NCBI GenBank assembly: GCA_003132325.1
Contig: PKXK01000075.1
Span: forward strand, 23,763-87,762
DNA length: 64,000 nucleotides
Source of the DNA: Acidobacteriaceae bacterium
GTDB taxonomy: Bacteria; Acidobacteriota; Terriglobia; Terriglobales; Acidobacteriaceae
Direction: 5' to 3'
Each line of letters begins with the position of its first letter. Position 1 is the stretch's first letter. The notes beneath the pieces were generated by a model, which had not been told where the DNA came from, made no database searches, and was given only the letters and a program-made list of their open reading frames with translations. This document shows positions 15,591-59,105 of the stretch, in pieces. Both the position numbers and the translations under genes were made by a program.

Positions 15591-15604
15591 ACCAAACGTT
15601 TGTT
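15591..15604. promoter_or_regulatory. Operator-like palindrome, copy 1 (ACCAAACGTTTGTT)
   Basis: 13/14 match to ACCAAACGTTTGGT. It lies 27 nt upstream of the ACAD start and abuts the -10 element. Confidence 0.7.
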
Positions 15605-15631
15605 TATATACTAACTGGCCCTTGCGGTCAA
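15603..15631 (-). promoter_or_regulatory. Sigma70-type promoter TTGACC-17-TATAAA
   Basis: The minus strand reads TTGACC gcaagggccagttagta TATAAA, running straight into the palindrome. Confidence 0.55.
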
Positions 15632-15654
15632 CGGTTTTCCCAAGCGGAGGATTC

Positions 15655-16068
15655 TTACCCCGCCAACACGCGGAAATGCTCGATGTCGAGGATGCTGGCG
15701 GAACGTTCCGATCGCCATACCGGCTCGACCGGGCTGCCGATCTTGAGGCGCCCACCATCGGCGACCACCCAATGCAAAAAAGATGAATCGGCCCCGTCCA
15801 AATGAATCAGCCCGAACGTCCGGTCCGCGCTGCTCGAGTAACTCAAGAGCTGCCCGGTTCCTGTCAGTTCCCGAAATTCCGTGACCGGCTGCCAGCACCG
15901 TCCGCAAAATGAAAGGGGCGGAACGCTCCGCCGGCCGCATTTCGAACACACGCTGGCCACGATCTTCTGGTCCGTCAGCCCTTGCAGAAAGCGTGTGACC
16001 GCCGGCCCTGCCGTGTATTGGAACGGGATCTCGATTCTCTGCCGCACACTCCAGTGCGCTGCGCTCAT
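15655..16068 (-). CDS. DUF35 (Zn-ribbon/OB-fold) protein
   Basis: Start MSAAHW follows GGAGGAGG, with ATGA overlap with the upstream gene. CSKCGRRSVPPLSFCGRC + ..FGLIHLDGAD... Confidence 0.8.
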   Translation of the reverse strand: MSAAHWSVRQRIEIPFQYTAGPAVTRFLQGLTDQKIVASVCSKCGRRSVPPLSFCGRCWQPVTEFRELTGTGQLLSYSSSADRTFGLIHLDGADSSFLHWVVADGGRLKIGSPVEPVWRSERSASILDIEHFRVLAG

Positions 16069-16556
16069 CGCGCCTCCTCCAGCGTGCGGAAATGCTGAAT
16101 GTCCAGCAAGCTGCCGGTGCGCTGCTCGCGGAACACGGCTTTGACCCGCTGCCCGACGTAAATCTTCTTCGGGTCGGTTTCTTCGAGAAAGTGATACATC
16201 GCCGTATCCGCGCCATCCAGGCGCACCATGGCAAATCCATAAGGTACCGGGCGCTGTTCGCCGGTCATGGGATCGATGAACGGCAACTCCACCACCGTAC
16301 AGCCGACCAGCGAGCCCTCGTCGCTGACCGGAACCCACTCTTTGGTCTCCGCAAAGCAGATGCCGCAGACCGGTCGCGGGGGCACGTACACGCGCTGGCA
16401 CGAAGGACACCGAACTCCGAGGATCCGCCCGTGATCGCGCAGTTCGCCGAAGAATCGTTCCGCGTGTGCACCCAGCGCGTACTCGTATTCCATACTCAGC
16501 TGGAACGGGATTCGCAAAGCCTTCTGTTCCACGACTTCCGCCTTCATCGCAGCCAT
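16065..16556 (-). CDS. DUF35 (Zn-ribbon/OB-fold) protein
   Basis: CPSCQRVYVPPRPVCGIC + ..YGFAMVRLDGAD..; 163 aa. Confidence 0.85.
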   Translation of the reverse strand: MAAMKAEVVEQKALRIPFQLSMEYEYALGAHAERFFGELRDHGRILGVRCPSCQRVYVPPRPVCGICFAETKEWVPVSDEGSLVGCTVVELPFIDPMTGEQRPVPYGFAMVRLDGADTAMYHFLEETDPKKIYVGQRVKAVFREQRTGSLLDIQHFRTLEEAR

Positions 16557-16560
16557 CTCT

Positions 16561-17718
16561 TTAGTTGCTCGCCAGAATCAATGCGTCGGTCCACGCGTTG
16601 CCGCCGTAGCCCGTCGCCAGCGCGGTGCGGACATTCGGCACCTGCCGCTTCCCCGCCTTGCCCATCACCTGGAGCGCGGCTTCGGCAACCCGGATCATCG
16701 CCGTGGCTCCAATCGGATTTGTGCTCAGCACCCCTCCTGAAGGATTGACGGGCAGCTCGCCAGTCATGCTGGTCACGCCTTCGTCGATCAGCCTGCCACC
16801 GTGCCCGCGTTCGCAGAACCTCAGGTTCTCGTACATCGCCATCTCGGCATAAGTCGCCACTTCGTAAATCTCGGCGACGTCCAGCTCTTTCCGCGGATTC
16901 GTGATTCCCACCGCCTTGTAAACCTTCTGCGACGCCGCGATTTGGCTGCGCATGATCGCCAAGCGCTTGGGGCTATCGCCCATGTATTGTTGTTCGTGCG
17001 CCGTCGCCACGGCCCTGATCCACGCCGGACGGGGCGCCAGTTTCCTGGCCTTGGACTCCTCGGCAATCACCATGGCCACCGCTCCATCGGACTGCGGACA
17101 CATATCCAGCTTACGGATGGGATGCGCCAGGATCTGCGAAGCCAGAACTTCTTCCACCGTAAGATTCGGCATTTGCAGGTGAGCGTATTCGTTGTTGCAG
17201 GCGTTGCGCCGGGCCTTCACGGCGACCTTGGCCGCCTGCTCGGGGGTCACCCCGCTTTCATGGATGTAGGTGCTCGCCATGACAGCGAAATTTCCCACCG
17301 CACCGGCCATCATCGTGCGCTCCCAAACGGGATCACCCACCGTAGTGATCGCGGCCTGCGTATGCCCGTCCGATTGCTTTTCAAATCCCACGGCCAGCAC
17401 GGTGTCATAAAGCCCAGCAGCAACGTAGTAGTAAGCGGCCATGGTGGTAGTGGTACCCACCGTGCCGCCAGTATTGAACTTCACCGAAGGCTTCAGATAT
17501 CCACCCCAACCTTCGACGCTCCACAGTTCGGGAAACATAAAGCCCTCAAAGGGCTCCATGTTGCCGAGAAACACGGCATCCACATCTTCCATGCGCAGGT
17601 CGGCATCTTCCAGCGCCTTGGTGACGACCTCGGTTATCAGTTCGCGGAGATTGACGTCGAGGCGCCTGGAGCCGTGCTTGGTCTGTCCGGTCGCAACGAT
17701 GCCGACTTTCCTACCCAT
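16561..17718 (-). CDS. Thiolase-fold protein lacking the canonical Cys/His/Cys residues (Ltp2-like / non-catalytic partner)
   Basis: Overall SCP-x thiolase pattern (..DMCPQSDGAVAMVIA.., NPSGG). However, it has FNTGGTVGTT where 506-1675 has NYCATGTDA, AEIYEVATYAE instead of AEVHDCFTWTE, and TNPIGATA instead of GHPVGATG. Confidence 0.85.
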   Translation of the reverse strand: MGRKVGIVATGQTKHGSRRLDVNLRELITEVVTKALEDADLRMEDVDAVFLGNMEPFEGFMFPELWSVEGWGGYLKPSVKFNTGGTVGTTTTMAAYYYVAAGLYDTVLAVGFEKQSDGHTQAAITTVGDPVWERTMMAGAVGNFAVMASTYIHESGVTPEQAAKVAVKARRNACNNEYAHLQMPNLTVEEVLASQILAHPIRKLDMCPQSDGAVAMVIAEESKARKLAPRPAWIRAVATAHEQQYMGDSPKRLAIMRSQIAASQKVYKAVGITNPRKELDVAEIYEVATYAEMAMYENLRFCERGHGGRLIDEGVTSMTGELPVNPSGGVLSTNPIGATAMIRVAEAALQVMGKAGKRQVPNVRTALATGYGGNAWTDALILASN

Positions 17719-17721
17719 AAT

Positions 17722-18849
17722 CTATGCCTCTCCCCGGCGCAGGATTACCACCGCCTGGGTCTGCCCACAAATTCCGTCGGCGCCATGGGCCAACGCAACG
17801 CTCGCGCCCGGAACCTGGTGGGCCCCGGCCGCGTCCGAGAGTTGCAGGTAAGCCTCGGCGACGCGCGTCAGTCCCGCGACCGTGGCTGGGTTTCCTGTAA
17901 TCGCACCACCGGAGGGGTTCACCTTTCCGCCGTTTTCCGATGCGGCGACCTTGGCCACGTCTTTTCTGGCCCACAATCCAAGCGCCTCGCCGTAAAGCAG
18001 TTCCTCTTGCGCGTAGCGGGCGGAGATCTCAGCGACGTCAATGTCTTTTGCACCCACGCCTGCCATCTGGTAAGCGCGCTTCGCGGCCTGCGAAAGGGCC
18101 ACAGCTTGAGCCAGATCGCGATCCGTCCAGTAGGCGTCGGTGGAATTTCCCATCCCGCTGATCCATACTGCGCGACTGCCGAATGTTTTTGCTTTCTCAG
18201 GACTCGCCAGCAACAAGGCGCAAGCTCCGTCCGACGTCGGGGCCGCCATGAGCTCCGTCAAAGGATCGGCGTATGCGGCCGCACTAAGAATCTGTTCGAT
18301 TTTGTACTCGCCGGCCCGCAGAGCCAGGGGATTTTTCATCGCATCGCGATGATTTTTCTGTGATACCTGGGCTAGCGTCTCGCTCCCGATTCCCGCCGCG
18401 TTCATGTACGCTCGGGCCTGCAGCCCAGCCGCGGTCGGCGCAAGGACTCCCAAGGGCCGCTGGCAGTAGGGATCGAACATCACAGCCGTAATCTTCTGCC
18501 CTTGGCCCTCGGACTCCTTGCAGTGCGCCACCACCAGCGTGTATTCGAAAGCCCCAGCCAAAATACGGGCGGCGCCATAGATCAGCGCCTGGATCCCGTC
18601 GGATGCGACTTTGGCCTCGGACTTCAGATACCCGCCCACCACTTCGCTGACCGACATGCTGGAGATCGTTTTGCCATCCCAGAAGTCCTGCGACGCGGTG
18701 ACCATGCTTTCGATCTCCTGCATGGGGACGCCGGTCTGCTTCAAAAGCCCGGCAACGACCTCGTACACAAGTTCGTTGTAAGTCTGGTGGGCTTTCTTCG
18801 CCTCATACCGGGTCTGCACTGCTCCGACAATGGCCACGCCTGCACTCAT
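17722..18849 (-). CDS. Thiolase-fold protein lacking the canonical Cys/His/Cys residues (second paralog)
   Basis: Start MSAGVAIVGAVQTRYE (ATGA overlap). KVASDGIQAL, AEISARYAQEE and GNPATVAGL sit at the three catalytic positions. The ORF-track start at 19083 overlaps the crotonase gene. Confidence 0.8.
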   Translation of the reverse strand: MSAGVAIVGAVQTRYEAKKAHQTYNELVYEVVAGLLKQTGVPMQEIESMVTASQDFWDGKTISSMSVSEVVGGYLKSEAKVASDGIQALIYGAARILAGAFEYTLVVAHCKESEGQGQKITAVMFDPYCQRPLGVLAPTAAGLQARAYMNAAGIGSETLAQVSQKNHRDAMKNPLALRAGEYKIEQILSAAAYADPLTELMAAPTSDGACALLLASPEKAKTFGSRAVWISGMGNSTDAYWTDRDLAQAVALSQAAKRAYQMAGVGAKDIDVAEISARYAQEELLYGEALGLWARKDVAKVAASENGGKVNPSGGAITGNPATVAGLTRVAEAYLQLSDAAGAHQVPGASVALAHGADGICGQTQAVVILRRGEA

Positions 18850-19643
18850 TTTCCCAACCAACGCGCCTTTCGTTTCTCGACAAATGCCGAGATCCCCTCC
18901 CGTGCATCCTGCGAGAGCACCGCTTTCCGGCAATGCTCCTTCTCGACTTCGAATCCCTCGCGATACGATCTTCCGATTGACTCGCGTAGACACTGCTTGA
19001 TCAGGGAGACGGCAACCGGAGCCTGGCCCGCCAGTTGCGAAGCGAACGCCTGCGCCTCGCCCAGTGTCTTCTCGGCATCGCAAGCGCGAGTGACTAGTCC
19101 GATCCGCGCCGCCTCGTCAGCATCCAAATAGGCGCCGGTCATCATTAGCTCGAGAGCTTTGGCGTATCCCACGGCCCGCGGCAGGCGCTGTGTGCCGCCG
19201 CCCCCGGGGATGATGCCGAGGTTCACCTCGGGCAGTCCGATGCGCGCCGGGCCCCGGCTCATGAAGCGGAAATCCAGGCACAGAGAAAATTCGCAGCCGC
19301 CGCCCAGCGCGTAGCCGGTAATCGCCGCAATCGTCGGCTTGGTAATGCGCTCCAGTCGCCCGAATACCTGGTGTACCCGCGCGATCACCTTATTCACGTA
19401 TTCTTCTTCGAAGCGGTATTCCTTCATCCGCTTGATGTCGGCGCCCGCCATAAATATCTTGGGATTGCGAGTGGCGAAAACTACTGCCCGCGTCTCCGAA
19501 TCCGCATCCATCTGGTCGCTTAGCCGCAGCAGTTCGTCATAGAGGTCGTTGTCGAGCGTGTTCGCCGGCGGCTTATCGAGATAAACCGTCGCGACCCCGC
19601 CCGACTGCTCGAGGCTGAGAAACTTGAACGAGTCAAAACTCAC
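18846..19643 (-). CDS. Enoyl-CoA hydratase/isomerase (crotonase) family
   Basis: GTG start at 19643, 4 nt after the upstream stop. ..VATVYLDKPPANTLD..FMAGADIK..ITGYALGGGCEFSLCLDFR..PEVNLGIIPGGGGTQRL... Confidence 0.85.
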   Translation of the reverse strand: MSFDSFKFLSLEQSGGVATVYLDKPPANTLDNDLYDELLRLSDQMDADSETRAVVFATRNPKIFMAGADIKRMKEYRFEEEYVNKVIARVHQVFGRLERITKPTIAAITGYALGGGCEFSLCLDFRFMSRGPARIGLPEVNLGIIPGGGGTQRLPRAVGYAKALELMMTGAYLDADEAARIGLVTRACDAEKTLGEAQAFASQLAGQAPVAVSLIKQCLRESIGRSYREGFEVEKEHCRKAVLSQDAREGISAFVEKRKARWLGK

Positions 19644-19647
19644 GCGA

Positions 19648-20535
19648 TTATTTCTTCTCCTTGCCGGCCGACTTCTTTTTGGGAGCGGATTCGAACTTGA
19701 AAACCGCCGCCGCCGCATCATGCAACAATGATTGTTTGTGTTCCGGCTTGAGATTCAGCAACTCGATCTGGCTCAGGCTCTCTTCATGCAGGATGAGCGG
19801 ATAGTCCGTACCCCACAACACCTTGCCTTTGCCACGGCTGTTCAGGAAATGCACCAGTTTCTTGTCCCAGTATTTCGGAGCATGCCCGCTGGCCGCGATG
19901 TACACATTCGGATGCTTCCACGCCATGGCAATCAGCTCTTCTACCCAAGGCCAGCCGCAATGCCCGCCAATCAACTTCAGTTCTGGGAAATATAAGGCAA
20001 TATCGTCGAGCAGGATGGGCTTCCCGCACGCGCTGGGCATGAACTCCGCCGAGTGTCCGACCTGAAACACGACCGGAATATCGAGCTCCGCACATTTCGC
20101 GTAGAAGGGAAACCATTCGGCCGCATTGATCGGCAGGCCGAACCCGAACGGATGCACGTGCGCACCCTTGAAGCCATATTCCTTCACGGCATGTTCGAGT
20201 TTGCGGACGCCCTCCATGCGTTCGAAAGGATTGATTCCCGCCAGCCCCACGATCCGGTCGGGATACTGTTTTACAAGCTTGGCAATGTCGGCGTAGTCGA
20301 AATCCGCCCCCATCTTGTTCTTGCGGTAGAAAGCCTGCTTCAGGGCCGGCACGCATACTTTTTCCACGCCCAGACGATCCATGTTGGCCACGAACTCATC
20401 CGCCGTGAAGCCTTTCATGTTGGCCTTGCGTCCCCACTGCACGCCCATCATGAAGAACACCTCTTCATTATCCAGAAAGAGATGCTTGATACCTTCCGGG
20501 GTGAACGGATTGCACCAGACGTCAATTGCTCCCAT
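19648..20535 (-). CDS. Amidohydrolase-2 family (ACMSD/LigI-like metal-dependent hydrolase or decarboxylase)
   Basis: MGAIDVWCNPFTPEG.., ..GFKGAHVHP.., ..VVFQVGHS.., ..GGHCGWPW.., ..VLWGTDYP.. show the typical TIM-barrel amidohydrolase_2 metal-ligand spacing. Confidence 0.8.
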   Translation of the reverse strand: MGAIDVWCNPFTPEGIKHLFLDNEEVFFMMGVQWGRKANMKGFTADEFVANMDRLGVEKVCVPALKQAFYRKNKMGADFDYADIAKLVKQYPDRIVGLAGINPFERMEGVRKLEHAVKEYGFKGAHVHPFGFGLPINAAEWFPFYAKCAELDIPVVFQVGHSAEFMPSACGKPILLDDIALYFPELKLIGGHCGWPWVEELIAMAWKHPNVYIAASGHAPKYWDKKLVHFLNSRGKGKVLWGTDYPLILHEESLSQIELLNLKPEHKQSLLHDAAAAVFKFESAPKKKSAGKEKK

Positions 20536-20537
20536 GC

Positions 20538-20957
20538 TCAGTCGTGCTCCTTATAAGAGTTCTCTTCCGCCAGTTCGATTAGGATGCCGCTCGTATCTTG
20601 CGGTGCGAGGAATGCGATTTGCCGGTCATGCAGGCCGCGCCGCGGCACTTCGTCCAGCAACTTGATGCCGTGGCTGCGCAGCTCGGCAAGGCGCTCCGAG
20701 ATTCCGTTAACTTCGAACGAGAGATGATGGACCCCTTCCCCGCGCTCGCGCAACAGCCGTCCTACCTTGGTGTTCGGTTCGCGCGAACTCAGCAGTTCCA
20801 GGTGGATTCCGCCCAGGTCCAACACAGTGACGTCGGTCTTGGTTTCGGAGATATGTCCGGTCTCGACCACCTGCGCTCCCAGTACCGAGCAAAAACGCTC
20901 GACCGCAGCCGGAAGGTCGCTCACCAGAACCCCAATGTGGCTGAAACGGCCAAGCAT
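20538..20957 (-). CDS. VOC family protein, methylmalonyl-CoA-epimerase-like
   Basis: Start MLGRFSHIGVLVSDL (RBS GGAGG upstream). ..IHLELL.., ..GVHHLSFEV.., ..ILIELAE... Confidence 0.8.
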   Translation of the reverse strand: MLGRFSHIGVLVSDLPAAVERFCSVLGAQVVETGHISETKTDVTVLDLGGIHLELLSSREPNTKVGRLLRERGEGVHHLSFEVNGISERLAELRSHGIKLLDEVPRRGLHDRQIAFLAPQDTSGILIELAEENSYKEHD

Positions 20958-21000
20958 GAAGCCAGCGCCTCCTGCGCGTTGCGGCAAGGGACTATTACCA

Positions 21001-21014
21001 ACCAAACGTTTGCT
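21001..21014. promoter_or_regulatory. Operator-like palindrome, copy 2 (ACCAAACGTTTGCT)
   Basis: 13/14 match. It lies 44 nt upstream of the 20957 start and abuts the -10 of the minus-strand promoter. Confidence 0.7.
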
Positions 21015-21042
21015 TTATAGCAGAGCGGAAGCGCCCCGTCAA
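21014..21042 (-). promoter_or_regulatory. Sigma70-type promoter TTGACG-17-TATAAA
   Basis: The minus strand reads TTGACG gggcgcttccgctctgc TATAAA, followed by GCAAACGTTTGGT. Confidence 0.55.
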
Positions 21043-21110: not shown

Positions 21111-21139
21111 TTGACAACCTAACCCGTGCTCCCTATTAT
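21111..21139 (+). promoter_or_regulatory. Sigma70-type promoter TTGACA-17-TATTAT for the etfB operon
   Basis: TTGACA (21111-21116), a 17-nt spacer, then TATTAT (21134-21139). The palindrome starts 13 nt downstream of the -10. Confidence 0.6.
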
Positions 21140-21151
21140 CATATCGAACCA

Positions 21152-21165
21152 AACAAACGTTTGGT
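21152..21165. promoter_or_regulatory. Operator-like palindrome, copy 3 (AACAAACGTTTGGT)
   Basis: 13/14 match. It lies at the predicted transcription start region, 28 nt upstream of the etfB ATG. Confidence 0.7.
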
Positions 21166-21996: not shown

Positions 21997-22014
21997 AAGA
22001 GATCTGGATAGCAC

Positions 22015-25019: not shown

Positions 25020-25069
25020 GCACAGACATGAAACCGACCTCGATGGAGGCAGAGTTCTAACCGACCTTT

Positions 25070-26236: not shown

Positions 26237-26240
26237 CTTA

Positions 26241-46532: not shown

Positions 46533-46543
46533 TCTTTTACCTG

Positions 46544-49722: not shown

Positions 49723-49753
49723 GGTTTCCTCTCTCCAGCCGGACTTCCCATGC

Positions 49754-50698: not shown

Positions 50699-50801
50699 TC
50701 GTCGTGCCCTGCCTTCCTCTGCGCGAACTGTTCGTCGAGCGCAGGAATGGGATATCTTTCGCCGTCACTGCCTGGGGCAAGTCATCCGTGCCACGCGCGT
50801 G

Positions 50802-51244: not shown

Positions 51245-51273
51245 AATCTACCAAACGTTTGTCTTGTTGTCAA
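51245..51273 (-). promoter_or_regulatory. Sigma70-type promoter TTGACA-17-TAGATT
   Basis: The minus strand reads TTGACA acaagacaaacgtttgg TAGATT, about 30 nt upstream of the 51215 start. Confidence 0.55.
51250..51263. promoter_or_regulatory. Operator-like palindrome, copy 6 (ACCAAACGTTTGTC)
   Basis: 12/14 match. It lies inside the 17-nt spacer of the promoter at 51245-51273. Confidence 0.65.
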
Positions 51274-51823: not shown

Positions 51824-51841
51824 ACCCGTAGGCCGCTCAAA

Positions 51842-51879
51842 CAGAGAAAATGGCCGCGAGGCTGGTTCGCTCCGCGGCC
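51842..51879 (-). terminator. Rho-independent-type terminator after the TonB-receptor gene
   Basis: The minus strand reads GGCCGCG-gagcgaaccagcct-CGCGGCC followed by ATTTTCTCTGTTT. Confidence 0.5.
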
Positions 51880-51898
51880 CACGCTAGAGAAATGCGGT

Positions 51899-54800
51899 TT
51901 AGAAGACCAGCTTCAGGCTGAACTGAATCTCCCGCGGCACTCCGTCGGTGGTGCTGATCACTCCTACCTGCGGCGACGAGAGGTTCGAGTTCGGCAAACT
52001 GAAATTGGCGTGGTTTGCGATGTTGAAGAAATCCGTCCGGAACTGCAGGTTCGTGCTCTCGGTGAGCCGGAAGACTTTCGCCACCGAGGCATCGATCTGC
52101 GCGAATCCGGGACCGATCACCGGGGTACGGGAAGCGGTACCGATATGACCGGCCGCTGGCGTGGTGAAAGCGCTAACGTCGAAATATTCGTTTACCCCGC
52201 CCAGAACCGGGTTGGGGCGGGAGATATTCGGGCGATCTGGAAAATCAATGTAGTCGCCGATACCGCTAGCGTCGGTGCCCAATAGTACGGAGAATGGCTG
52301 ACCGGTCTGTGCCGACCCCAGCGAGCTGACGTTCCAACCTCCGAGTAGCGCATCCACTACGCCGTTGGCGCTGTCCAGATGTTTCCGTCCTTTGCCGAAC
52401 GGGAGTTGGTAGGTCACACTCTCGGTGAACCTTTGCCTCCGGCTGAACGCCGATTCGGAGCGATCCAGGCGAATATTGGCGGGATAGAGACTGGCCTGGG
52501 CCACTCCTGTCAGAATGTTAGAGGAATTGTAAGCGTCAGATTCGGAAATATTTTTCGCCCAGGTGTAACTAGTCTGGAAGTTCACGGCGCCCACCGCGCG
52601 GGACAGCTTCACTGTCCCCCCGTTGTACAGCGCGTTGGTATCATACCGCCGGGAGTACAGAGAGAAACCCACCCCGGCTTGAACGAATCCAGGCGCCCCG
52701 GTCGGCGGATTTGGTGCGGCGCACCCGCTTGCCGGAAAAACGGGAAAGCCGTTGCTATCGAGCACTGGATGCGCATCTCCGCCGCACGGCTGGTTGTAGT
52801 TGGCTTCCAGTTTCCGTGGCAGGTGCCACGACTGAGAACCCGTGTATGTAAGTTCCAGGCTCATGCGCCCTGGGAGTTCCCGTTCCACGCCGAAACTCCA
52901 CTGCTGCGTAGTAGGAGAGTTCATCGGTTCGAGCACACCGGTAATCAGCCCCGGGAACGGACTTGGCGCCGTGCAAGTGGCGCATGTCGGAAACTGCCCC
53001 ACTGGTCCAAAGAAGGTGTTCAAAACCGGCTGCGGATTGTTCCATTGCAGAATGCCCTGTGCCAGCCCGGCGAAATCCACGAAGTCATTAAAGATTCCGT
53101 ACCCCATCCGGAATACGGTTTTGCCGTCCCCGAAGGGATCGTAGGCAAACCCCACCCGGGGTTGAAATTGGGTTAAGGAATAATTGTTGTAGGGCACGCC
53201 CACATGCACGGAGGTTGCGTACGGCGATTGCCAGCTCCCCAACTGATTGTGTGCGTCCGAAAGAACCGGAATCTGCAAATCGTGGCGGATCCCGAAGTTG
53301 AGCGTCAGTTTGTGGGTAACGCGGAAAACGTCGTTGACATACCACGCAAGCGGCGTCGTGCGCGCATTGAAATGACTGGGCGGACCGTCGCGATGGATCA
53401 GAGTGACCGTGGGCGCGCCCTGCAACAGCGTAGTGAGGTCAGAGAAAGTGTAGCTGCCGCCCGGGATAGTAGCCGATGACCAGTTCCACTGGATGCGTTC
53501 CACCATGCCGCCAATAGCGATCGTGTGCTTGCCATGGACCCATAACAGGTCATCGTTGAAGGGCACAACGTTCTTCGCCTCGGTAAACGGACTGGCATCG
53601 TCGTTACCTAACAACGACAGACTTCCACCCGAGGTCCCCGCGCTGCCGTTACCCACTGTGATCACGCCAATAGTTTGCCTGGCAGGATTGCCGGTGTATT
53701 GATCGGACTGGAGTTGCACCGTGGGGTTCGTGCTGGAATTGAGGAACTGCCTGAGCAGACTCACGCTGGCCGTATTGACCAGGCTGGAGCTGATGGTGCG
53801 GCTCCACTTGACCAGAACGTTTTGGTCGCGGTCGAAGCGATTGAACTGGAAGTCGGGAAGATTGAATGCTTGCGTGGCGCTGGCATCCACGATCTGGTAA
53901 CGGAATTGGAGTTGGTCCTTGGAGGTCAATGCGTGAGTGAGGTTTGCCACCCCGAAATCCTGCCGTGTAGGTTGGTGGTTGGCGAACGCAGCCTCAGCGA
54001 TACCGGAGGCGGGGAAGGAAGGAAGCGAAGGCGACGGATCGGGGAACAGTGCCAGCAAGGGCAGAACTGCAGGCACGAGTCCGGGCACAGGCACACCGTT
54101 GATATTGCCAATACGCGCTCCCGCATCGGGCACAAAAGCAATGTTGGTGGTGTTCAGACTTTGCCGCAACCCCTCGTAGTTGATGAAGAAGAAGGTCCGG
54201 TCCTTCACGATTGGACCGCCTAACGTGCCGCCGAATTGGTTGCGTTTGAAGGCGGGCTTGTAGGGCGAGCCATCGGCATTGAAATCGAAGTACGACCGGG
54301 AATCAAAGATGTCGTTTCGCAGGTACTCGTACACATTCCCGTGAAACTTGTTGGTCCCGGTTTTGGTCGCAAACGTCACTACTGCCGCCCCCGCTCCGCC
54401 ATACTCCGCGCTGTAGTTGTGGCTCAGCACTTTGAATTCCTGGATTGCTTCCACACCCGGCATATCGCCCGCCGCTGCGGTTCCCGGCGCCGTCAGGCTG
54501 CCATTCGAGAAGTTCACGCCGTCCATCAAGTACGCGACCGAACTTCCCATCGACCCATCGGCAGAAATATAGGACCCCGTGTTCGTGGCCGCGCTCAATA
54601 CGCTTGGCGGCGGCGTGCTGGTGATCTGCACCAAGCCTGGCTGCTGTGTTACCAGCGCCGTAAAGCTGCGCTGGTTCAGCGGCAGGTCCTGCAGTTGCTG
54701 GGTCTGAACCACGTTGGAAACTTCGGACTCCGTGGTCTGCACCGTGACTTCTTCGGCGTTGACTTCCACCGTCTCGGTGACTTGGCCGACATTCAGTGCG

Positions 54801-55144
54801 ATTTTCAAGTTGGGATTCGCCCCAATATTCAGCCGCACCAAATCGACTACCGCTTTCTGGAAGTTGGCCTGCTCCACCGTGACCGAGTAGCTTCCGGGAG
54901 GTAGCTGCAGCACAGTAAAGTGTCCTTGCCCATCGGTCACGGACTGGCTGGTCTGCCCTGTGGCATTGTTCTTCACCGTAACTTTTGCCCCGGCGAGGGC
55001 GCTGCCCGTCTTGTCGACCACGTCTCCCGCCAGGGTCGCCGTGGTCACCCCGACTTGGGCCCACGCGGGGGATACCCAGCAAACCATTTGCAAGTACAGA
55101 AAACACACCAGTGCTGTTACCGCAATACGCTTGAAAATACGCAT
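51899..55144 (-). CDS. TonB-dependent outer-membrane receptor with N-terminal carboxypeptidase-regulatory-like domain (Acidobacteria-type)
   Basis: Start MRIFKRIAVTALVCFLYLQ...AWAQ (signal peptide). ..GDVVDKTGSALAGAKVTVKN..TDGQGHFTVLQLPPGSYSV.. is the CarboxypepD_reg domain. A long beta-barrel follows, with C-terminal ..FSLKLVF. Confidence 0.9.
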   Translation of the reverse strand: MRIFKRIAVTALVCFLYLQMVCWVSPAWAQVGVTTATLAGDVVDKTGSALAGAKVTVKNNATGQTSQSVTDGQGHFTVLQLPPGSYSVTVEQANFQKAVVDLVRLNIGANPNLKIALNVGQVTETVEVNAEEVTVQTTESEVSNVVQTQQLQDLPLNQRSFTALVTQQPGLVQITSTPPPSVLSAATNTGSYISADGSMGSSVAYLMDGVNFSNGSLTAPGTAAAGDMPGVEAIQEFKVLSHNYSAEYGGAGAAVVTFATKTGTNKFHGNVYEYLRNDIFDSRSYFDFNADGSPYKPAFKRNQFGGTLGGPIVKDRTFFFINYEGLRQSLNTTNIAFVPDAGARIGNINGVPVPGLVPAVLPLLALFPDPSPSLPSFPASGIAEAAFANHQPTRQDFGVANLTHALTSKDQLQFRYQIVDASATQAFNLPDFQFNRFDRDQNVLVKWSRTISSSLVNTASVSLLRQFLNSSTNPTVQLQSDQYTGNPARQTIGVITVGNGSAGTSGGSLSLLGNDDASPFTEAKNVVPFNDDLLWVHGKHTIAIGGMVERIQWNWSSATIPGGSYTFSDLTTLLQGAPTVTLIHRDGPPSHFNARTTPLAWYVNDVFRVTHKLTLNFGIRHDLQIPVLSDAHNQLGSWQSPYATSVHVGVPYNNYSLTQFQPRVGFAYDPFGDGKTVFRMGYGIFNDFVDFAGLAQGILQWNNPQPVLNTFFGPVGQFPTCATCTAPSPFPGLITGVLEPMNSPTTQQWSFGVERELPGRMSLELTYTGSQSWHLPRKLEANYNQPCGGDAHPVLDSNGFPVFPASGCAAPNPPTGAPGFVQAGVGFSLYSRRYDTNALYNGGTVKLSRAVGAVNFQTSYTWAKNISESDAYNSSNILTGVAQASLYPANIRLDRSESAFSRRQRFTESVTYQLPFGKGRKHLDSANGVVDALLGGWNVSSLGSAQTGQPFSVLLGTDASGIGDYIDFPDRPNISRPNPVLGGVNEYFDVSAFTTPAAGHIGTASRTPVIGPGFAQIDASVAKVFRLTESTNLQFRTDFFNIANHANFSLPNSNLSSPQVGVISTTDGVPREIQFSLKLVF

Positions 55145-55348: not shown

Positions 55349-55362
55349 ACCAAACGATTGGT
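55349..55362. promoter_or_regulatory. Operator-like palindrome, copy 7 (ACCAAACGATTGGT)
   Basis: 13/14 match. It lies 7 nt downstream of the -10 of the promoter at 55369-55397. Confidence 0.7.
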
Positions 55363-55368
55363 TGGTAC

Positions 55369-55397
55369 TATTTAATCGTTTCCCGCACGCTTGTCAA
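55369..55397 (-). promoter_or_regulatory. Sigma70-type promoter TTGACA-17-TAAATA for the TonB-receptor unit
   Basis: The minus strand reads TTGACA agcgtgcgggaaacgat TAAATA. Confidence 0.55.
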
Positions 55398-55691: not shown

Positions 55692-56129
55692 TTACTTCTT
55701 TTGCAGGGACTCGATGTACTTGTTCAGATTGGCGACACGCTGCTGCACTTCGGCTTCGTGTCCGGCGCTTATACTCCAGAACAGGTGGCCCCAGATCGGC
55801 ATATCCTTGCTCCCGTGGGCGGCCAGCACGTCATCTCCACGAATGATCGCAGAAACCTTCATTGCCGGATACTTGCCTCCGTTCTTGCCGGCCAACGCGG
55901 TCAGATCGGTCGGCGGCACCTTCAAGGCATCCGCAGCCGGACCGTTCCCTTTGCCGTCCGTACCGTGACAAACGGCGCAATACGTCTTGTACATCTCTGG
56001 CCCCGATGCTGCTGAGGTGGGTTTGATCGGGACACGTTTGATTTCTTTCTTCGGCGCCTGAGCCGATGCCATCATCACCATGGCGATGACTACCGCGAGA
56101 ACTATCCAAAGACTCCTACGAGCACGCAT
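55692..56129 (-). CDS. Class I c-type cytochrome, secreted
   Basis: Signal peptide MRARRSLWIVLAVVIAMVMMASAQA. Haem motif CAVCH, and a distal Met candidate in ..SKDMPIW... Confidence 0.85.
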   Translation of the reverse strand: MRARRSLWIVLAVVIAMVMMASAQAPKKEIKRVPIKPTSAASGPEMYKTYCAVCHGTDGKGNGPAADALKVPPTDLTALAGKNGGKYPAMKVSAIIRGDDVLAAHGSKDMPIWGHLFWSISAGHEAEVQQRVANLNKYIESLQKK

Positions 56130-56190
56130 TGATTTCCTCCTTGAGATCTAACTTCTCCCTCGTCTTACACTGCGTACAACAAGTCAGTCT

Positions 56191-56213
56191 AGTTTGGAGA
56201 CAAACTCCAAACT
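56191..56213. other. Perfect 9-bp inverted repeat AGTTTGGAG-acaaa-CTCCAAACT
   Basis: It lies in the gap between the thioesterase stop and the cytochrome c start. It contains GTTTGG/CCAAAC, the operator half-sites in everted order. Confidence 0.3.
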
Positions 56214-56271
56214 GTGAAGACCGTCACATCCCGGCGTGATTAAAGACGCAACGGTAACCAACCGTAGAGCG

Positions 56272-56706
56272 CTATTTCAGTTCCACATTTCGTTCATATG
56301 CCGCAATCGCCTGGCGAACTCGCGCCGGAAGCGCTTGCGCCCGCCTCGTTTCCGGGTTCGCATTCACGTGCACCACTTCCCCGGTCGTCAGCAGTTGGCC
56401 TTCACGCCGGATCTCAATCGCAAACGTGACACTGGAATTCCCCAACCGTGCCGCTCGCACTCCTATCTCGAGCACATCATCGTAACCAGCCGAACCGTGG
56501 TAGTTCACTAGTGCCTTCGCCACATACAGATCGCTACCCGTTCCCGCTAACCCATCTGGATACGGAAGCCCGATCGCACGCCAGTATTCCGTTATCGCCA
56601 CATCGAAATAAGTGAGATAGTGTGCATTGAACACGATTCCCTGCTGGTCCACTTCCGCCCAGCGCACCCGCAATGCCATCGTGAACGCATATCCCTGGAT
56701 CGCCAT
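56272..56706 (-). CDS. Acyl-CoA thioesterase, 4HBT/YbgC hot-dog fold
   Basis: ..VRWAEVDQQGIVFNAHYLTYFD.. is the typical YbgC-type N-terminus; 144 aa. Confidence 0.85.
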   Translation of the reverse strand: MAIQGYAFTMALRVRWAEVDQQGIVFNAHYLTYFDVAITEYWRAIGLPYPDGLAGTGSDLYVAKALVNYHGSAGYDDVLEIGVRAARLGNSSVTFAIEIRREGQLLTTGEVVHVNANPETRRAQALPARVRQAIAAYERNVELK

Positions 56707-56765
56707 GCTGCCCCTGGTGCACGCAGTATCGCAACTGAGGACCTCTCACCTCGAACCAACCGCAT

Positions 56766-57701
56766 TTACAAGGCTGCTGTGCACAGCCACCGATGTGGCT
56801 TCTCCGCTTCCGTTCGATAATAGTAAGCAAAATCTCCGTACCCAGTGCGTTCTCCGCAAGTGTATTTCGCGGTGCCAAACAACAAGTGCCCAGTGCGGTG
56901 TGGCCAGTGACCCGAAGTGTCCACGATATTGAGCGGTTGCACCCCCAGCACCAGCTTTTCACCCGCCTTGCTCACCACCTCCGCTTGGACCCGGGCTGGG
57001 ACGCGTCCGCTCTCCGGCCAGTGAACGGTGAAGTCCGCCGACTGAAGGAGATCGCGATTTCCGTTGCGCAGAATGTATCCGCAGAGTTGCTCGCGTCCAT
57101 CCGTAAACCCCTGGGGATAGACATTGACCGTAAGTGACTCGTCAAACAGCGGCCACAGCATGATGTACTGTTTCCACTTGGAACGTCCGCCCCAGCCCCA
57201 CATCCGGTCGCGGTAGCCCAGGCTGTCAATTGCGATCGTCGTATTCTGCAATCGGACCTCACCCGTGAACCGGCCGACCTGGTCAAAGTGGTTGCTGGAC
57301 GGTCCCTTGCTTTCCGACTCCATCCATAATTTCGATTCCGCCCAGGAGTAAGGGGCGTGGACAGCGTCGAACTGAAGATCCAACTGAATCTCTGGACTCA
57401 CATAGTAGACCCGCCACCGTTTCATTGGCTCCACGTTTTTCATAAAAACCGGGCCGAAGCTCAGACGATCTTCCTGAATATCCGCGGGGATGTGGTAATC
57501 CATCTTCATGTGATGGTGCAGGACCCGATTCCCCTGAAACACAGCGGCGATCACATCGGCGCGCTCCTGGTTGGGAAAAACGCCGAGGTAACACACGAAC
57601 TGCAAATCGTGCCGGCGGTCGTAGAAACCCCAGTACCAAGCCTCGCGCCACCAAGGTTCGGTCCCGGTCTGGTGGGTGAGATCATCGTGCGGCTGCAACA
57701 T
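56766..57701 (-). CDS. Conserved hypothetical, unknown family B, copy 2
   Basis: ..QTGTEPWWREAWYWGFYD.., ..SLGYRDRMWGWGGRSKW... Paralog of 34760-35686 and 60005-60877. Confidence 0.7.
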   Translation of the reverse strand: MLQPHDDLTHQTGTEPWWREAWYWGFYDRRHDLQFVCYLGVFPNQERADVIAAVFQGNRVLHHHMKMDYHIPADIQEDRLSFGPVFMKNVEPMKRWRVYYVSPEIQLDLQFDAVHAPYSWAESKLWMESESKGPSSNHFDQVGRFTGEVRLQNTTIAIDSLGYRDRMWGWGGRSKWKQYIMLWPLFDESLTVNVYPQGFTDGREQLCGYILRNGNRDLLQSADFTVHWPESGRVPARVQAEVVSKAGEKLVLGVQPLNIVDTSGHWPHRTGHLLFGTAKYTCGERTGYGDFAYYYRTEAEKPHRWLCTAAL

Positions 57702-57808
57702 GGGTGTACCCCCGGAAGACGCTTGTCAGCGTGGCGCCGGGCGGCATCGTTTCGTCCCGGTGACGCGAGGCACGAGCACCGAATCTGACATGCTATGCTC
57801 GTTCAACA

Positions 57809-57822
57809 AACAAGCGTTTGTT
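57809..57822. promoter_or_regulatory. Operator-like palindrome, copy 8 (AACAAGCGTTTGTT)
   Basis: 11/14 match, in the divergent gap between family B copy 2 and family A copy 3. Confidence 0.55.
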
Positions 57823-57845
57823 TTAACAACGGCAAAGATTATCAC

Positions 57846-59036
57846 ATGCCCTTCGGTGGGACCAGTGATTTGGATGGGAGAATGTCCGCCATGGTCGAGC
57901 GCGTAAATCGCGAGATTGCCATCTTCGAAAAGTATTTCCGGAGATTCTTCCGCGGAGAGGATCGCTCCAATCTACAGTCGGCCCTGTTCAATGTGCCGGG
58001 ACGACTGGTTGCCGGCTGTTGCGCCGACTACGAGAACATGGCTGCAGTCTTCCGGCACCTTCTGACAACCGCTTCGGCGGAGCAAATCGGCCGTCGGATG
58101 AAGCAGACTGCCTCGCGGCCCGGAATTTTTCAGATCACCTGCCTGCTCGTGAGTTATCTGATCGGGCGCCAACAGGAGATTCTGTTACGGCACGGCGAAG
58201 GCTTGTCCTACAGCGACGAGAAACATCTGGAAGAGATGGATCTGCTTTTCGAGGCGGGCCGGACAATTTTGAGTGCAGCCCGCAACGACGGCGCGCATTT
58301 TCCGGGCGAATCGCGGGATGAGATGCCTCTTCTGGACGATGCCGCCCAGCATACCCTGGTGCACCAGTTAAGCGAACCCTCCCTGCAGGATCTGTCCTGG
58401 AGGCGCCGCCCATGGGCAACTCTCACCGCCTATAACTTCTTGCTCCATGGTGAGATGCGGGACGGCATTTTCAATCACGGGCCTTACGATCTTGGAGGTG
58501 GCCACTGTCTCCTGGTCAGGGAGCTAACGGAGTTGCACAACGACTATTTCCCCTGGTCCACCAACATTCGCAAACTTCCCGCGGGATTCGTGCGGGCCAT
58601 GATCCTGAAGGACGTAGAATGCCGTTTCGATGTGCTCGGCGGCGTTGCCACGCAGCCGCAAGTATTCGAGGACAGGATCGTTCTCGATGGGCTATTTGAA
58701 ATATCCAAGGGCCGACTGGTTCCGACCGATGAGTCTGCCACCAGGAAGATTCTGGAGGTTGTGTCGGAAAACAGTAGAGTCCTATACGAAGAATTCTGCG
58801 GCTGGGAGGAATCCCGGAAACTTCGCTACGGCACGCTCCTGCACGCGAATTTTCTGCGCGGTTTTTGGGAACTGATCCCTGGGATTAGCGCCCATGGACT
58901 CGCCCGTAGCACAATTGTGGGATACGAACGCTCTGGGGAAGCGCACTTTTCTGAGTTGTCTAGTCGCCGAATTCCGTTGGTGATGGAGCACATCGCTAAC
59001 ACCACAGGACCCATCTTTTCTCCGCTTCGTCTCTGA
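57846..59036 (+). CDS. Conserved hypothetical, unknown family A, copy 3
   Basis: ..LFNVPGRL.., ..RRRPWATLTAYNFLLHGEMRDGIFNHGPY.., ..DYFPW.., ..NTTGPIFSPLRL. The start is uncertain (ATG 57846 or 57882). The ORF-track start at 57795 would put the palindrome inside the CDS. Confidence 0.65.
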   Translation: MPFGGTSDLDGRMSAMVERVNREIAIFEKYFRRFFRGEDRSNLQSALFNVPGRLVAGCCADYENMAAVFRHLLTTASAEQIGRRMKQTASRPGIFQITCLLVSYLIGRQQEILLRHGEGLSYSDEKHLEEMDLLFEAGRTILSAARNDGAHFPGESRDEMPLLDDAAQHTLVHQLSEPSLQDLSWRRRPWATLTAYNFLLHGEMRDGIFNHGPYDLGGGHCLLVRELTELHNDYFPWSTNIRKLPAGFVRAMILKDVECRFDVLGGVATQPQVFEDRIVLDGLFEISKGRLVPTDESATRKILEVVSENSRVLYEEFCGWEESRKLRYGTLLHANFLRGFWELIPGISAHGLARSTIVGYERSGEAHFSELSSRRIPLVMEHIANTTGPIFSPLRL

Positions 59037-59091
59037 TTAGTCTCGGGTAATCCGGCAGCGACCGCCGTGGAGCTCTCATTTAGCATCCGAA

Positions 59092-59105
59092 ACCAATCGT
59101 TTGTT
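59092..59105. promoter_or_regulatory. Operator-like palindrome, copy 9 (ACCAATCGTTTGTT)
   Basis: 12/14 match, 25 nt upstream of the ATG at 59130. Confidence 0.6.

Follow-up and report, generated by a model that had tools for sequence, protein, structure and literature searches.

Nine inverted repeats at the promoters of a catabolic gene cluster in a peat-soil Acidobacterium: probable operators of a cluster-encoded TetR-family repressor

A degradation gene cluster of ~60 kb in an uncultured peat-soil Acidobacterium carries nine copies of a short inverted repeat at its promoters, raising the question of whether these copies define a single regulon and, if so, which protein recognizes them. A sequence-only reading of the 64,000-nt stretch analyzed here (the window) had proposed one near-window-wide regulon under the TetR-family gene at 8780-9382; the coordinates and sequences that it gave for the nine sites were all correct. 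Eight sites match ACCAAACGTTTGGT with at most two mismatches, against 0.10 expected from dinucleotide shuffles of the window (0 of 100 shuffles reached eight), and the ninth, at 57809, has three. The remaining three-mismatch matches, at 4958 and 39501, both lie in coding sequence and look like chance. With an 18-position weight matrix made from the nine sites, the sites themselves scored 27.3-32.6, while the next independent match in the window reached 10.5 and lay in coding DNA. Since scores are bimodal (27-33 versus at most 10.5), the window holds exactly nine sites and no weaker copies, and the earlier impression that no copy lies in a called CDS is borne out.

Non-coding DNA makes up 6.4% of the window in our gene map, and all nine sites fall within it (p ~2e-11), as had been read by eye; shuffling the non-coding DNA alone gave 0.012 expected hits versus 8 observed. 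Each site also immediately precedes, as proposed, the leading gene of a co-directional string. Three of them (21001, 51250 and 57809) overlap the longest possible ORF of the adjoining gene. Gene calls on a contig of the same species, however, start SnoaL (137 aa) at 51215 and a 396-aa protein without assigned family at 57846, both downstream of their sites, and for the glyoxalase the sequence shows an ATG at 20957 preceded by an AGGAGG ribosome-binding site. The site at 57809 occupies a divergent gap and may serve both flanking units.

The element is an 18-bp, 7-4-7 inverted repeat, ACCAAAC-N4-GTTTGGT, with a spacer that in this lineage is mostly GTTT or GATT. The 14-mer was rejected as the true element: it is an off-centre window on the 18-bp repeat, whose usual GTTT spacer gives the 14-mer the appearance of a palindrome. 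In this lineage the registers with 0-nt and 4-nt spacers describe the sites equally well, but more distant relatives retain only CAAAC-N4-GTTTG, with ACCT, AGGT, GCTC and GGTG as spacers, so that the half-sites persist and the central CG does not. The half-sites had been likened to those of PsrA but without a spacer; the half-sites stand, whereas the missing spacer does not, as the 14-mer covers only part of the element and the conserved 4-nt register is the PsrA-type spacing. The nine operators are as follows (L numbers are loci of the comparison set).

O1, 15591..15608, ACCAAACGTTTGTTTATA: overlaps the -10 box of the ACAD...TetR...thiolase operon promoter; kept at the same operon head in L007-L022.
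O2, 20997..21014, minus-strand reading AGCAAACGTTTGGTTGGT: abuts the -10 box of the glyoxalase-operon promoter; kept in L094-L096 and L098.
O3, 21148..21165, ACCAAACAAACGTTTGGT: perfect 7-4-7 repeat beginning 9 nt downstream of the ETF promoter -10 box.
O4, 44093..44110, ACCAAACGCTTGTTTTGT: overlaps the -10 box of the DUF2889-operon promoter; orthologous counterparts in L087 (15978) and L088 (17637).
O5, 47660..47677, minus-strand reading ACTAAACGTTTGTTTGGT: begins 18 nt downstream of the -10 box; 18-mer identical before the orthologous monooxygenase pair in L087, L088 and L089.
O6, 51250..51267, ACCAAACGTTTGTCTTGT: fills the -35/-10 spacer.
O7, 55349..55366, ACCAAACGATTGGTTGGT: begins 2 nt downstream of the TonB-receptor promoter -10 box; orthologous sites at L087 8326, L088 9780, L089 9807 and L090 9892.
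O8, 57805..57822, AACAAACAAGCGTTTGTT: in a 144-nt divergent gap with no strict promoter match; orthologous site at L087 5422.
O9, 59092..59109, ACCAATCGTTTGTTTGAT: follows a TAGCAT -10-like box by 5 nt and precedes an ATG by 20 nt.

The promoters and transcription units adjoining these operators (assigned from Pfam; for units 1 and 2, also from gene calls, which for unit 1 came from a contig of the same species) are:

Unit 1 promoter, 15603..15631, minus strand: TTGACC-N17-TATAAA.
Unit 1, 506..15564, minus strand, 14 genes: ACAD, FAD oxidoreductase, IpdAB-like CoA-transferase pair, OYE/FadH-like reductase, TetR, ACAD, SDR, glyoxalase, three CoA-transferase genes, DUF35/HMG-CoA-synthase-like protein, thiolase.
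TetR regulator (proposed cognate repressor), 8780..9382, minus strand: 200 aa, TetR_N + TetR_C_24, sixth gene of unit 1.
Unit 2 promoter, 21014..21042, minus strand: TTGACG-N17-TATAAA.
Unit 2, 15655..20957, minus strand, 7 genes: glyoxalase, amidohydrolase_2, enoyl-CoA hydratase, two thiolase-like proteins, DUF35, zf-ChsH2.
Unit 3 promoter, 21111..21139, plus strand: TTGACA-N17-TATTAT (11/12 consensus matches).
Unit 3, 21193..35686, plus strand, 11 genes: ETF beta, ETF alpha, membrane FeS (CCG) oxidoreductase, two paralogous proteins without assigned family, hydantoinase A/B (acetone-carboxylase-like), acyl-CoA ligase, split PEP-utilising enzyme, DUF7065/7064.
Unit 4 promoter, 44106..44134, minus strand: TTGACC-N17-TACAAA.
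Unit 4, 35693..44072, minus strand, 9 genes, synteny in L087-L090: DUF2889, CoA-transferase pair, luciferase-like monooxygenase, two SDRs, SnoaL, acyl-CoA ligase, thiolase.
Unit 5 promoter, 47696..47724, minus strand: TTGACT-N17-GAGAAT.
Unit 5, 44152..47578, minus strand: two luciferase-like monooxygenases, CMD/AhpD-like ORF, SDR.
Unit 6 promoter, 51245..51273, minus strand: TTGACA-N17-TAGATT.
Unit 6, 47989..51215, minus strand, 4 genes, block missing from this place in L087-L090: SnoaL, metallo-beta-lactamase fold, protein without assigned family, luciferase-like monooxygenase.
Unit 7 promoter, 55369..55397, minus strand: TTGACA-N17-TAAATA.
Unit 7, 51317..55144, minus strand: Oar-like TonB-dependent receptor (a 100% identical database protein has 1081 aa), PNPOx-like flavoprotein.
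Unit 8a, 55692..57701, minus strand: DUF7065/7064, 4HBT thioesterase, cytochrome c.
Unit 8b, 57846..59036, plus strand: the 396-aa protein.
Unit 9, 59130..59930, plus strand: metallo-beta-lactamase-fold protein.

The CMD/AhpD-like ORF of unit 5 (44926-45486) contains an in-frame TGA. The cytochrome c gene is preceded by a 142-nt gap and has no site directly in front of it within the window. The earlier caution that it belongs to the regulon only if co-transcribed was sensible; it is probably co-transcribed within unit 8a. In relatives, a site stands directly before this gene (L087 7197, L089 9649) or heads a short unit containing it (L009 15633).

Seven of the nine sites touch a canonical TTGAC-N17-TAnnnn promoter, overlapping the -10 box, filling the spacer or covering the predicted start region, a placement that, judged from these predicted promoters, is repressor geometry. 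The pattern TTGAC.-N16-18-TA.A[AT][AT] has only five matches on both strands of the 64 kb, every one at a site, and the strict promoter scan added two further promoters adjoining sites; no convincing -35 box was found at 57809 or 59092. Alternatively, the repeats might bind no protein and instead form hairpins that serve as intrinsic terminators or attenuators between co-directional genes, be REP-like elements or belong to the promoter itself. The 7-4-7 repeat can fold as RNA (-7.2 to -7.7 kcal/mol), a terminator scan flags two sites, and several sites lie between same-strand genes. However, the stems are A/T-rich and lack a proper U-tract, and no Rfam family matched. Most sites are located no further downstream than the predicted transcription start, where they overlap the -10 box or spacer. 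A promoter element is disfavored because the sites do not keep a fixed position with respect to the -35 and -10 boxes, and a REP or mobile element because the flanks of the nine sites share no similarity. Furthermore, sites persist at orthologous promoters while the surrounding sequence has diverged. On all these grounds a structural or selfish element is very improbable.

Operators of a single repressor, the TetR-family protein at 8780-9382, are to be weighed against operators of some other regulator. Among 57 ORFs scanned, TetR was the sole protein in the window with a DNA-binding domain, as had been claimed, and the exact protein is present on 24 metagenome contigs. Its best PDB relatives include the acyl-CoA-sensing repressors PfmR (3vpr), KstR2 (4w1u/4w97), AibR (5k7f) and Bacillus FadR, as well as MbdR, and its TetR_C_24 domain assigns it to the group of the first four. 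A PsrA-like protein was ruled out by this grouping. The likeness to PsrA is in the DNA site and not demonstrably in the protein, since no PsrA-named chain was among the best 60 PDB matches of either the whole protein or the HTH alone.

Comparison with related Acidobacteriaceae genomes ties site and regulator together: sites recur at orthologous promoters, and 69 of the 80 genomic loci, reaching down to 46% protein identity, have one site at the head of an operon that contains TetR. The recognition-helix segment TSIEDVARDVGMLKGSLYYYIKSK(E/D)DLL is nearly invariant in most loci of the set. In the TetR operon leader of L007-L022 (TetR identity 92 to 51%), conservation is confined to the two promoter boxes (-35 and -10) and the site, and the flanks diverge. 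Of the 56 distant loci whose upstream flank is long enough, 53 have exactly one CAAAC-N4-GTTTG, which heads the TetR-containing operon and overlaps the -35 box TTGACC; in three distant loci with full flanks (L050, L071 and L085) a TetR homologue is present, whereas sites are absent within 10 kb. Sites also recur before the orthologous TonB receptor (53-87% protein identity), monooxygenase pair, DUF2889 operon, divergent DUF7065/8b-protein pair and ETF operon (ETF-beta 59-97%), where the O3 counterpart is kept down to 59%. They travel with promoters when genes are rearranged: in the reshuffled L009, two sites occupy a new divergent gap directly before FADox-TetR-ACAD. As a negative control, ~29 kb of neighboring non-cluster DNA in L088-L090 contained no site.

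LacI/PurR-family operators are 14-16-bp palindromes centred on CG (PurR box GCAAACGTTTGC), and in the 14-mer register the repeat is likewise a CG-centred palindrome with core CAAACGTTTG. The sites could therefore belong to such a regulator encoded outside the window; the ~72 kb of genome inspected leaves room in principle for a gene elsewhere. Yet distant relatives lose the central CG while keeping the half-sites, the site is linked to the TetR-encoding operon, the regulated genes serve acyl-CoA chemistry and not sugar or purine metabolism, and LacI-type genes are absent from the window and from the 20-kb orthologous loci with gene calls. We consider an outside regulator improbable. Promoter geometry and comparative genomics instead support the proposed single regulon, and the nine repeats are most likely operators of TetR, whose binding is predicted here.

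Several characterized systems resemble this one. KstR2 of Mycobacterium and Rhodococcus, the TetR repressor of the steroid C/D-ring 'HIP' regulon, has the same Pfam architecture (TetR_N + TetR_C_24; PDB match E 1e-18), lies within its own regulon as TetR does here, and controls from several operators a cluster rich in IpdAB-type CoA-transferase-like genes, acyl-CoA dehydrogenases, crotonase, thiolase, acyl-CoA ligase and SDRs. Its 14-bp operator AnCAAGnnCTTGnT (PMC3068626) is one symmetric position pair from ACCAAACGTTTGGT, in the 14-mer register only. However, TetR is not its orthologue (no KstR2 or steroid-pathway equivalog reaches the NCBIfam cut-off here), the operator sequence differs and the conserved register here is 7-4-7 instead of a 14-bp palindrome, nine operators and ~55 genes contrast with three and 15, and the Acidobacterium cluster has an additional TonB receptor, luciferase-like monooxygenases and acetone-carboxylase-like and PEP-utilising enzymes. 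PsrA of Pseudomonas, a fatty-acid-responsive TetR regulator, binds C/GAAAC-N2-4-GTTTG/C, with TTCAAAC-N4-GTTTGAA at P. putida rpoS (PMC13104628); half-sites and spacing resemble those here and in distant relatives (ttCAAAC-N4-GTTTGac), as do control of acyl-CoA metabolism and autoregulation (here proposed), but PsrA also works as an activator and responds to long-chain fatty acids in free form. PfmR (TTHB023) of Thermus thermophilus, the second-best solved relative (E 1.4e-26), is a repressor of phenylacetate and fatty-acid genes. The consensus predicted for it, TACCGACCGNTNGGTN, as cited in PMC7022988, has the outer ACC...GGT and inner CG in common with our sites, but its half-site core is CGAC instead of CAAAC, and it governs a small regulon in a Deinococcus-Thermus thermophile. 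The closest match in regulatory logic is MbdR, the TetR repressor that controls the 3-methylbenzoate cluster in Azoarcus sp. CIB: one cluster-encoded TetR with an 18-bp operator that recurs at several promoters of its large catabolic cluster, where the copies cover the -10 box, -35 box or +1 (PMC4424350). MbdR is a more distant protein (4uds, E 3.6e-10) with an unrelated operator (ATAC-N10-GTAT), four promoters and an anaerobic aromatic pathway.

TetR might also bind the sites without being a classical inducible repressor, through AibR-like ligand-dependent binding or as an activator at some promoters. AibR, among the five closest solved relatives, needs isovaleryl-CoA to bind its operator (PMC5389471), PsrA shares the half-sites and activates rpoS (PMC13104628), and the sites at 57809 and 59092 have no clear overlapping promoter. 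Against this, seven operators sit on the -10 box, immediately after it or in the spacer, all polymerase-blocking positions, the regulon is catabolic, and PfmR, KstR2 and MbdR are repressors (PMC3068626, PMC7022988, PMC4424350). We regard a non-classical mode as unlikely, though the direction of the ligand response is uncertain because AibR requires its acyl-CoA for DNA binding.

For classical repression, we infer TetR binding, the sign of regulation, the effector and the pathway substrate as follows. A TetR dimer on each operator would block RNA polymerase at sigma-70-type promoters by covering their -10 box, -35/-10 spacer or predicted start region, and would so hold off ten transcription units (~55 genes, window 506-59930). 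TetR would be autoregulated because its own operon, headed by the 15591 site, is among these units, as had been suggested and as the arrangement kept in relatives supports. A CoA-thioester intermediate of the pathway would bind the C-terminal domain, by analogy with the nearest characterized relatives: the KstR2 ligand is HIP-CoA (PMC5389471), and for MbdR relief of repression by a CoA ester, the first such intermediate, was demonstrated (PMC4424350). The ligand-bound repressor would then leave the DNA and the whole pathway would be induced: TonB-dependent uptake, flavin monooxygenases, hydrolases, an ATP-dependent carboxylase-like enzyme, IpdAB-like ring-opening enzymes, beta-oxidation and ETF. 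Such a system would be of a kind already known, an acyl-CoA-type TetR repressor with a multi-operator catabolic regulon, and the cluster is most likely a real, well-conserved regulon of this familiar type.

The nine palindromes listed in the sequence-only reading (at 15591, 21001, 21152, 44093, 47664, 51250, 55349, 57809 and 59092) were all found in the window at their positions and with their sequences. Eight differ from ACCAAACGTTTGGT at no more than two positions, against 0.10 expected from dinucleotide-preserving shuffles of the whole window and 0.012 when the non-coding DNA alone was shuffled; the ninth (57809) has three mismatches. All nine are non-coding, although non-coding DNA makes up only 6.4% of the window (p ~2e-11; gene map combining ORFs, Pfam matches and database gene calls). 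The proposed weight-matrix scan gave scores of 27.3-32.6 for the nine sites and 10.5 for the next independent position, which is coding (128 kb, both strands); given this bimodal distribution, there are nine sites without a grey zone. No further or weaker site turned up directly before tetR or the cytochrome c gene, in the gaps 41718-41799, 50699-50801, 56130-56271 and 60878-61000, or within 6.9 kb past the right end of the window, the source-genome sequence covered being the window plus flanks of ~1 kb (left) and 6.9 kb (right). Approximately 29 kb of unrelated neighbor genes (groEL, thiG, cofH and others) in L088-L090, loci retrieved via the TonB receptor, also lacked a site.

The predicted operators are 18-bp inverted repeats, ACCAAAC-N4-GTTTGGT, inside the 14-20-bp range of TetR-type operators, and the nine yield the consensus ACCAAACG(T/A)TTG(T/G)TTGGT. 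Read in a consistent orientation, four of the nine have a perfect TGGT extension and four more have three of its four bases. The original description of a palindrome without a spacer captured part of this element: because the spacer is in most cases GTTT, the same bases that open the right arm, a 14-bp zero-spacer palindrome arises and fits in this lineage, but the full element is a 7-4-7 repeat, with a 4-nt spacer in distant loci. Both registers fit equally well in the window genome and close relatives (mean mismatches for 7-4-7 versus the 14-mer of 1.7 versus 1.9 and 1.85 versus 1.62, respectively), and 7-4-7 is clearly better in mid-distance relatives (0.94 versus 2.25), as exemplified by the site in front of the receptor in L090, ACCAAACggtgGTTTGGT. 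The pure 14-mer was rejected as the entire motif because it is incomplete: both the TGGT extension and the mid-distance relatives favor 7-4-7.

Oriented with their downstream genes, seven of the nine sites overlap or adjoin a predicted TTGAC-N17-TAnnnn promoter.

Predicted promoters at seven operator sites
Site 15591: TTGACC-N17-TATAAA; operator overlaps the -10 box
Site 21001: TTGACG-N17-TATAAA; operator abuts the -10 box
Site 21152: TTGACA-N17-TATTAT; operator begins 9 nt downstream
Site 44093: TTGACC-N17-TACAAA; operator overlaps the -10 box
Site 47664: TTGACT-N17-GAGAAT; operator 18 nt downstream
Site 51250: TTGACA-N17-TAGATT; operator fills the spacer
Site 55349: TTGACA-N17-TAAATA; operator 2 nt downstream

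The entire window contains just five instances of the loose pattern TTGAC.-N16-18-TA.A[AT][AT], each at a site, and overlap of operator and promoter is likewise seen in relatives. The repeat does not keep a fixed distance from the hexamers and hence is no promoter element in its own right; at these predicted promoters, a protein bound to it would occlude RNA polymerase. A terminator scan flagged 21148-21165 and 55346-55365, but a terminator or attenuator reading was rejected because these A/T-rich stems have no U-tract and are located on promoters. REP elements and RNA motifs were also rejected as readings of the sites, and no Rfam model matched the window at gathering thresholds.

As the sequence-only reading had suggested should be examined, the motif is conserved upstream of orthologous clusters, recurring at the TetR-operon, receptor, monooxygenase, DUF2889 and ETF promoters. 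In 16 loci with TetR 92-51% identical to that of the window, one site heads the ACAD-...-TetR operon, ~6.2 kb upstream of tetR, and conservation in the aligned leaders is limited to the -35 box, the -10 box and the site; in the more distant of these, the site no longer lies at the -10 box but 10-11 nt further downstream. Loci found through the TonB receptor (87-53% receptor identity) share the gene order of the window. Sites there precede the receptor gene, the monooxygenase pair, the DUF2889 operon and the divergent DUF7065/unknown pair, and in two of these loci the cytochrome c gene as well. Loci found through ETF-beta (97-59%) retain TTGACA-N17-TATTGT or TACTCT with a perfect ACCAAAC-aaac/aatc-GTTTGGT after it, and the divergent partner site is kept as well in L094-L096 and L098. 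In the rearranged TetR locus L009, the order is HydB-HydA-unk403-unk388, two sites, then FADox-TetR-ACAD, so the sites occupy a new divergent gap.

Across the 80 genomic loci, a site heads the TetR-containing operon in 69, and in the rearranged L009 it has moved together with tetR. This linkage in cis supports, at the level of sequence, the claim that the regulator controls its own operon and, with the predicted promoter geometry and the conservation, leaves the earlier idea of a window-wide regulon essentially right once the spacer is corrected. The sites might instead belong to a distant LacI/PurR-type regulator, an unlikely alternative given that mid and far relatives have lost the central CG and that the site stays with the TetR operon; moreover, Pfam detected no LacI-type domain in the window.

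Of the distant loci (TetR identity <=52%, mostly Acidoferrales), 56 have enough flank, and 53 of these carry CAAAC-N4-GTTTG exactly once per 20 kb, at the operon head. The site usually reads ttACCAAACaccTGTTTGACC, in which TTGACC serves as the -35 box of a promoter of the form TTGACC-N17-TAACCT. At positions ~2500-5100 of the distant loci L023-L086, the arrangement is ttACCAAAC-N4-GTTTGACC, N17, TAACCT, with a single operator overlapping the -35 box, again mostly in Acidoferrales. Compared with one site per 20 kb in distant relatives, the window has nine in 64 kb; the regulon appears to have grown larger within the Acidobacteriaceae. The stretch around the recognition helix, TSIEDVARDVGMLKGSLYYYIKSK(E/D)DLL, is almost unchanged in most loci of the set, which, together with the distant sites, leads us to infer that half-site and spacing are identical throughout. 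Three loci with full 10-kb flanks and a TetR homologue of ~47-52% identity (L050, L071 and L085; one each labeled Blastocatellia, uncultured Blastocatellia and Acidobacteriota) contain no CAAAC-N4-GTTTG, even with one mismatch allowed; operon organization or operator may differ there. The MAG palsa_296 holds two TetR copies, in L009 (PKUV01000113; 89% identical to the window TetR) and L011 (PKUV01000137; 72%). Their gene arrangements differ, L009 being compact and reshuffled with two operators directly before FADox-TetR-ACAD, and the pair represents either a true paralogous second cluster or a strain mix in the bin.

TetR (8780-9382, reverse strand) was rightly singled out as the only protein with a DNA-binding domain among the window ORFs: Pfam and NCBIfam scans of 57 ORFs, four of which have no family in either, found no second one. 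It combines an N-terminal PF00440 HTH (E 1.5e-13) with a C-terminal PF17932 TetR_C_24 domain (E 7e-27) and has 111 TetR-type PDB matches. Its best solved relatives are 3dcf, PfmR (3vpr), KstR2 (4w1u/4w97) and AibR (5k7f), followed by DarR, Bacillus FadR and MbdR. PfmR, KstR2, AibR, FadR and MbdR belong together as regulators that sense acyl-CoAs, with HIP-CoA the effector of KstR2, isovaleryl-CoA that of AibR and 3-methylbenzoyl-CoA that of MbdR (PMC5389471, PMC4424350). The C-terminal WIYRWY of TetR aligns with the AibR segment WIYKWF, which includes Lys175, a residue making a backbone contact to the CoA adenine (PMC5389471). By analogy, an acyl-CoA is a reasonable inference for the effector.

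TetR and the nine sites are confidently predicted to form a repressor-operator pair, in kind a standard TetR regulon, a well-known type of system. The apo-TetR dimer would occupy the nine operators and block ten units (506-59930, ~55 of 57 genes), its own operon included, until a CoA-thioester intermediate released it. Alternatively, TetR may be an AibR-like ligand-dependent binder or an activator, which we consider improbable. The predicted repressor resembles MbdR and KstR2 in regulatory logic, namely a cluster-encoded TetR, several operators on -10/+1 and a CoA-ester ligand, putative here.

Resemblance to KstR2 extends to the same Pfam C-terminal domain and a PDB match at E 1e-18, yet 3dcf and PfmR are closer to the window TetR, and the only steroid-regulator model matched in NCBIfam was KstR (20 bits, cut-off 280). 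The KstR2 operator AnCAAGnnCTTGnT (PMC3068626) is similar but not identical to the sites here, ACCAAACGTTTGGT, in which A and T replace its G and C, and the 4-nt spacer of the conserved register counts against a match. The PfmR consensus TACCGACCGNTNGGTN (PMC7022988) is likewise similar without being identical. The KstR2 regulon comprises ipdAB, ipdC, ipdF, fadD3, echA20, fadE30-33 and fadA6, which the window resembles only at family level: in NCBIfam, FadD3 scored 346 bits against a cut-off of 657, EchA19 203 against 400 and IpdE2 91 against 450, and the CoA-transferase pair had no IpdA or IpdB match. Canonical steroid catabolism was rejected for the pathway as no NCBIfam steroid equivalog reached its cut-off, and the system is therefore not classed as a KstR2 regulon. 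A likeness to PsrA, noted earlier for the half-sites, holds for the DNA: the sites match its operator consensus, C/GAAAC-N2-4-GTTTG/C (PMC13104628), though with a 4-nt spacer rather than the spacerless arrangement first described. CAAAC-N4-GTTTG is exact in two window sites, has one mismatch in six and two in one, and is exact in 53 distant loci. By name, no PsrA chain appeared among the best 60 PDB matches to the whole TetR or its HTH.

The window (59.5% G+C) corresponds to the reverse strand of WOOD18-1 scaffold_76, a metagenome scaffold of 115 kb; its proteins recur on many contigs from peat and soil, and the closest genomes are uncultured Acidobacteriaceae/Terriglobales MAGs. Its genes form ten tightly packed units. 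Acyl-CoA metabolism is represented by acyl-CoA dehydrogenases, thiolases with DUF35/ChsH2-type partners, a crotonase, two acyl-CoA ligases and four CoA-transferase-like systems (three pairs and one fused), and redox functions by an OYE/FadH-like reductase, SDRs, four luciferase-like monooxygenases, an ETF with a membrane FeS oxidoreductase, and cytochrome c. SnoaL and metallo-beta-lactamase-fold proteins, an acetone-carboxylase-like hydantoinase pair, PEP-utilizing enzymes, an Oar-type TonB-dependent receptor and several DUF or unknown families complete the set. The DUF7065c/PPDK-like unit at 60005-63682, whose operon starts >6.9 kb past the right end, is the only one in the window without a site.

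Three DUF7065/DUF7064 paralogues (34733-35686, 56766-57701 and 60005-60877) weakly match the Rv3169 family, and two lie in operator-headed units. Two adjacent paralogues directly upstream of hydantoinase A/B (25070-26236 and 26241-27452; 388 and 403 aa, ~35% identical) match no Pfam or NCBIfam family and remain attached to the hydantoinase genes in rearranged L009; they may be unrecognized subunits or accessory proteins of the acetone-carboxylase-like enzyme. The block at 47989-51215 (SnoaL, metallo-beta-lactamase fold, an unknown 229-aa protein and a luciferase-like monooxygenase) has its own predicted promoter and operator (site 51250) and sits between the PNPOx gene and the monooxygenase pair, which are adjacent in L087-L090; it looks like a unit recruited into the regulon along with its operator. 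F420 biosynthesis genes (CofH, F420 ligase and CofC) adjoin the cluster in one relative (L089, 6301-8882) and an F420-dependent-oxidoreductase-family gene adjoins the window's left end (L001, 19002-19703); therefore, the luciferase-like monooxygenases may use F420, not FMN.

An apparent 596-nt gap between monooxygenase and SDR genes holds one 186-codon frame (44926-45486, reverse strand) with a single in-frame TGA (45250-45252) in the CxxU motif (...NSCEY-TGA-KIAN...) of a CMD/AhpD-like domain (PF02627, E 2e-7 with TGA read as Cys). Gene callers divide the frame into 78 aa and 48-106 aa. L087-L090 conserve the TGA, the peptide past it and, 14-17 nt downstream, a hairpin, with pairing preserved between CGTCTGGGCCAGACG in the window and CGCTTGGGCCAAGCG in L090, making this a candidate AhpD-like selenoprotein with a SECIS-like element.

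Tentatively, and with some doubt about the whole, the operators could delimit, gene by gene, a large undescribed catabolic pathway of peatland Acidobacteriaceae, ~60 kb of which would lie in the window and the rest past its right end. Its substrate would be alicyclic or polycyclic (steroid-, hopanoid- or terpenoid-like), taken up in a TonB-dependent manner and processed by several flavin (possibly F420-dependent) luciferase-like monooxygenases, an acetone-carboxylase-like enzyme, PEP-utilizing enzymes, three IpdAB-like ring-opening systems and the AhpD-like selenoprotein. Under the same proposal, the regulon would have grown from one autoregulated operon with a single operator, as in Acidoferrales, to at least nine operators, and the operator may have gained an overlapping zero-spacer register as a possible alternative binding mode.

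Acidobacteria are among the most abundant bacteria in soil and peat and are a phylum with few genetic tools; to our knowledge, almost nothing is known of their transcriptional regulation or of the substrates of their large catabolic clusters. The value of the finding is practical: the predicted pair yields an objective gene list for one uncharacterized Acidobacterial pathway, including six families without known function, opens a direct way to find the inducer and, through it, the substrate, and would be a ready-made inducible promoter-repressor module for Acidobacteria.
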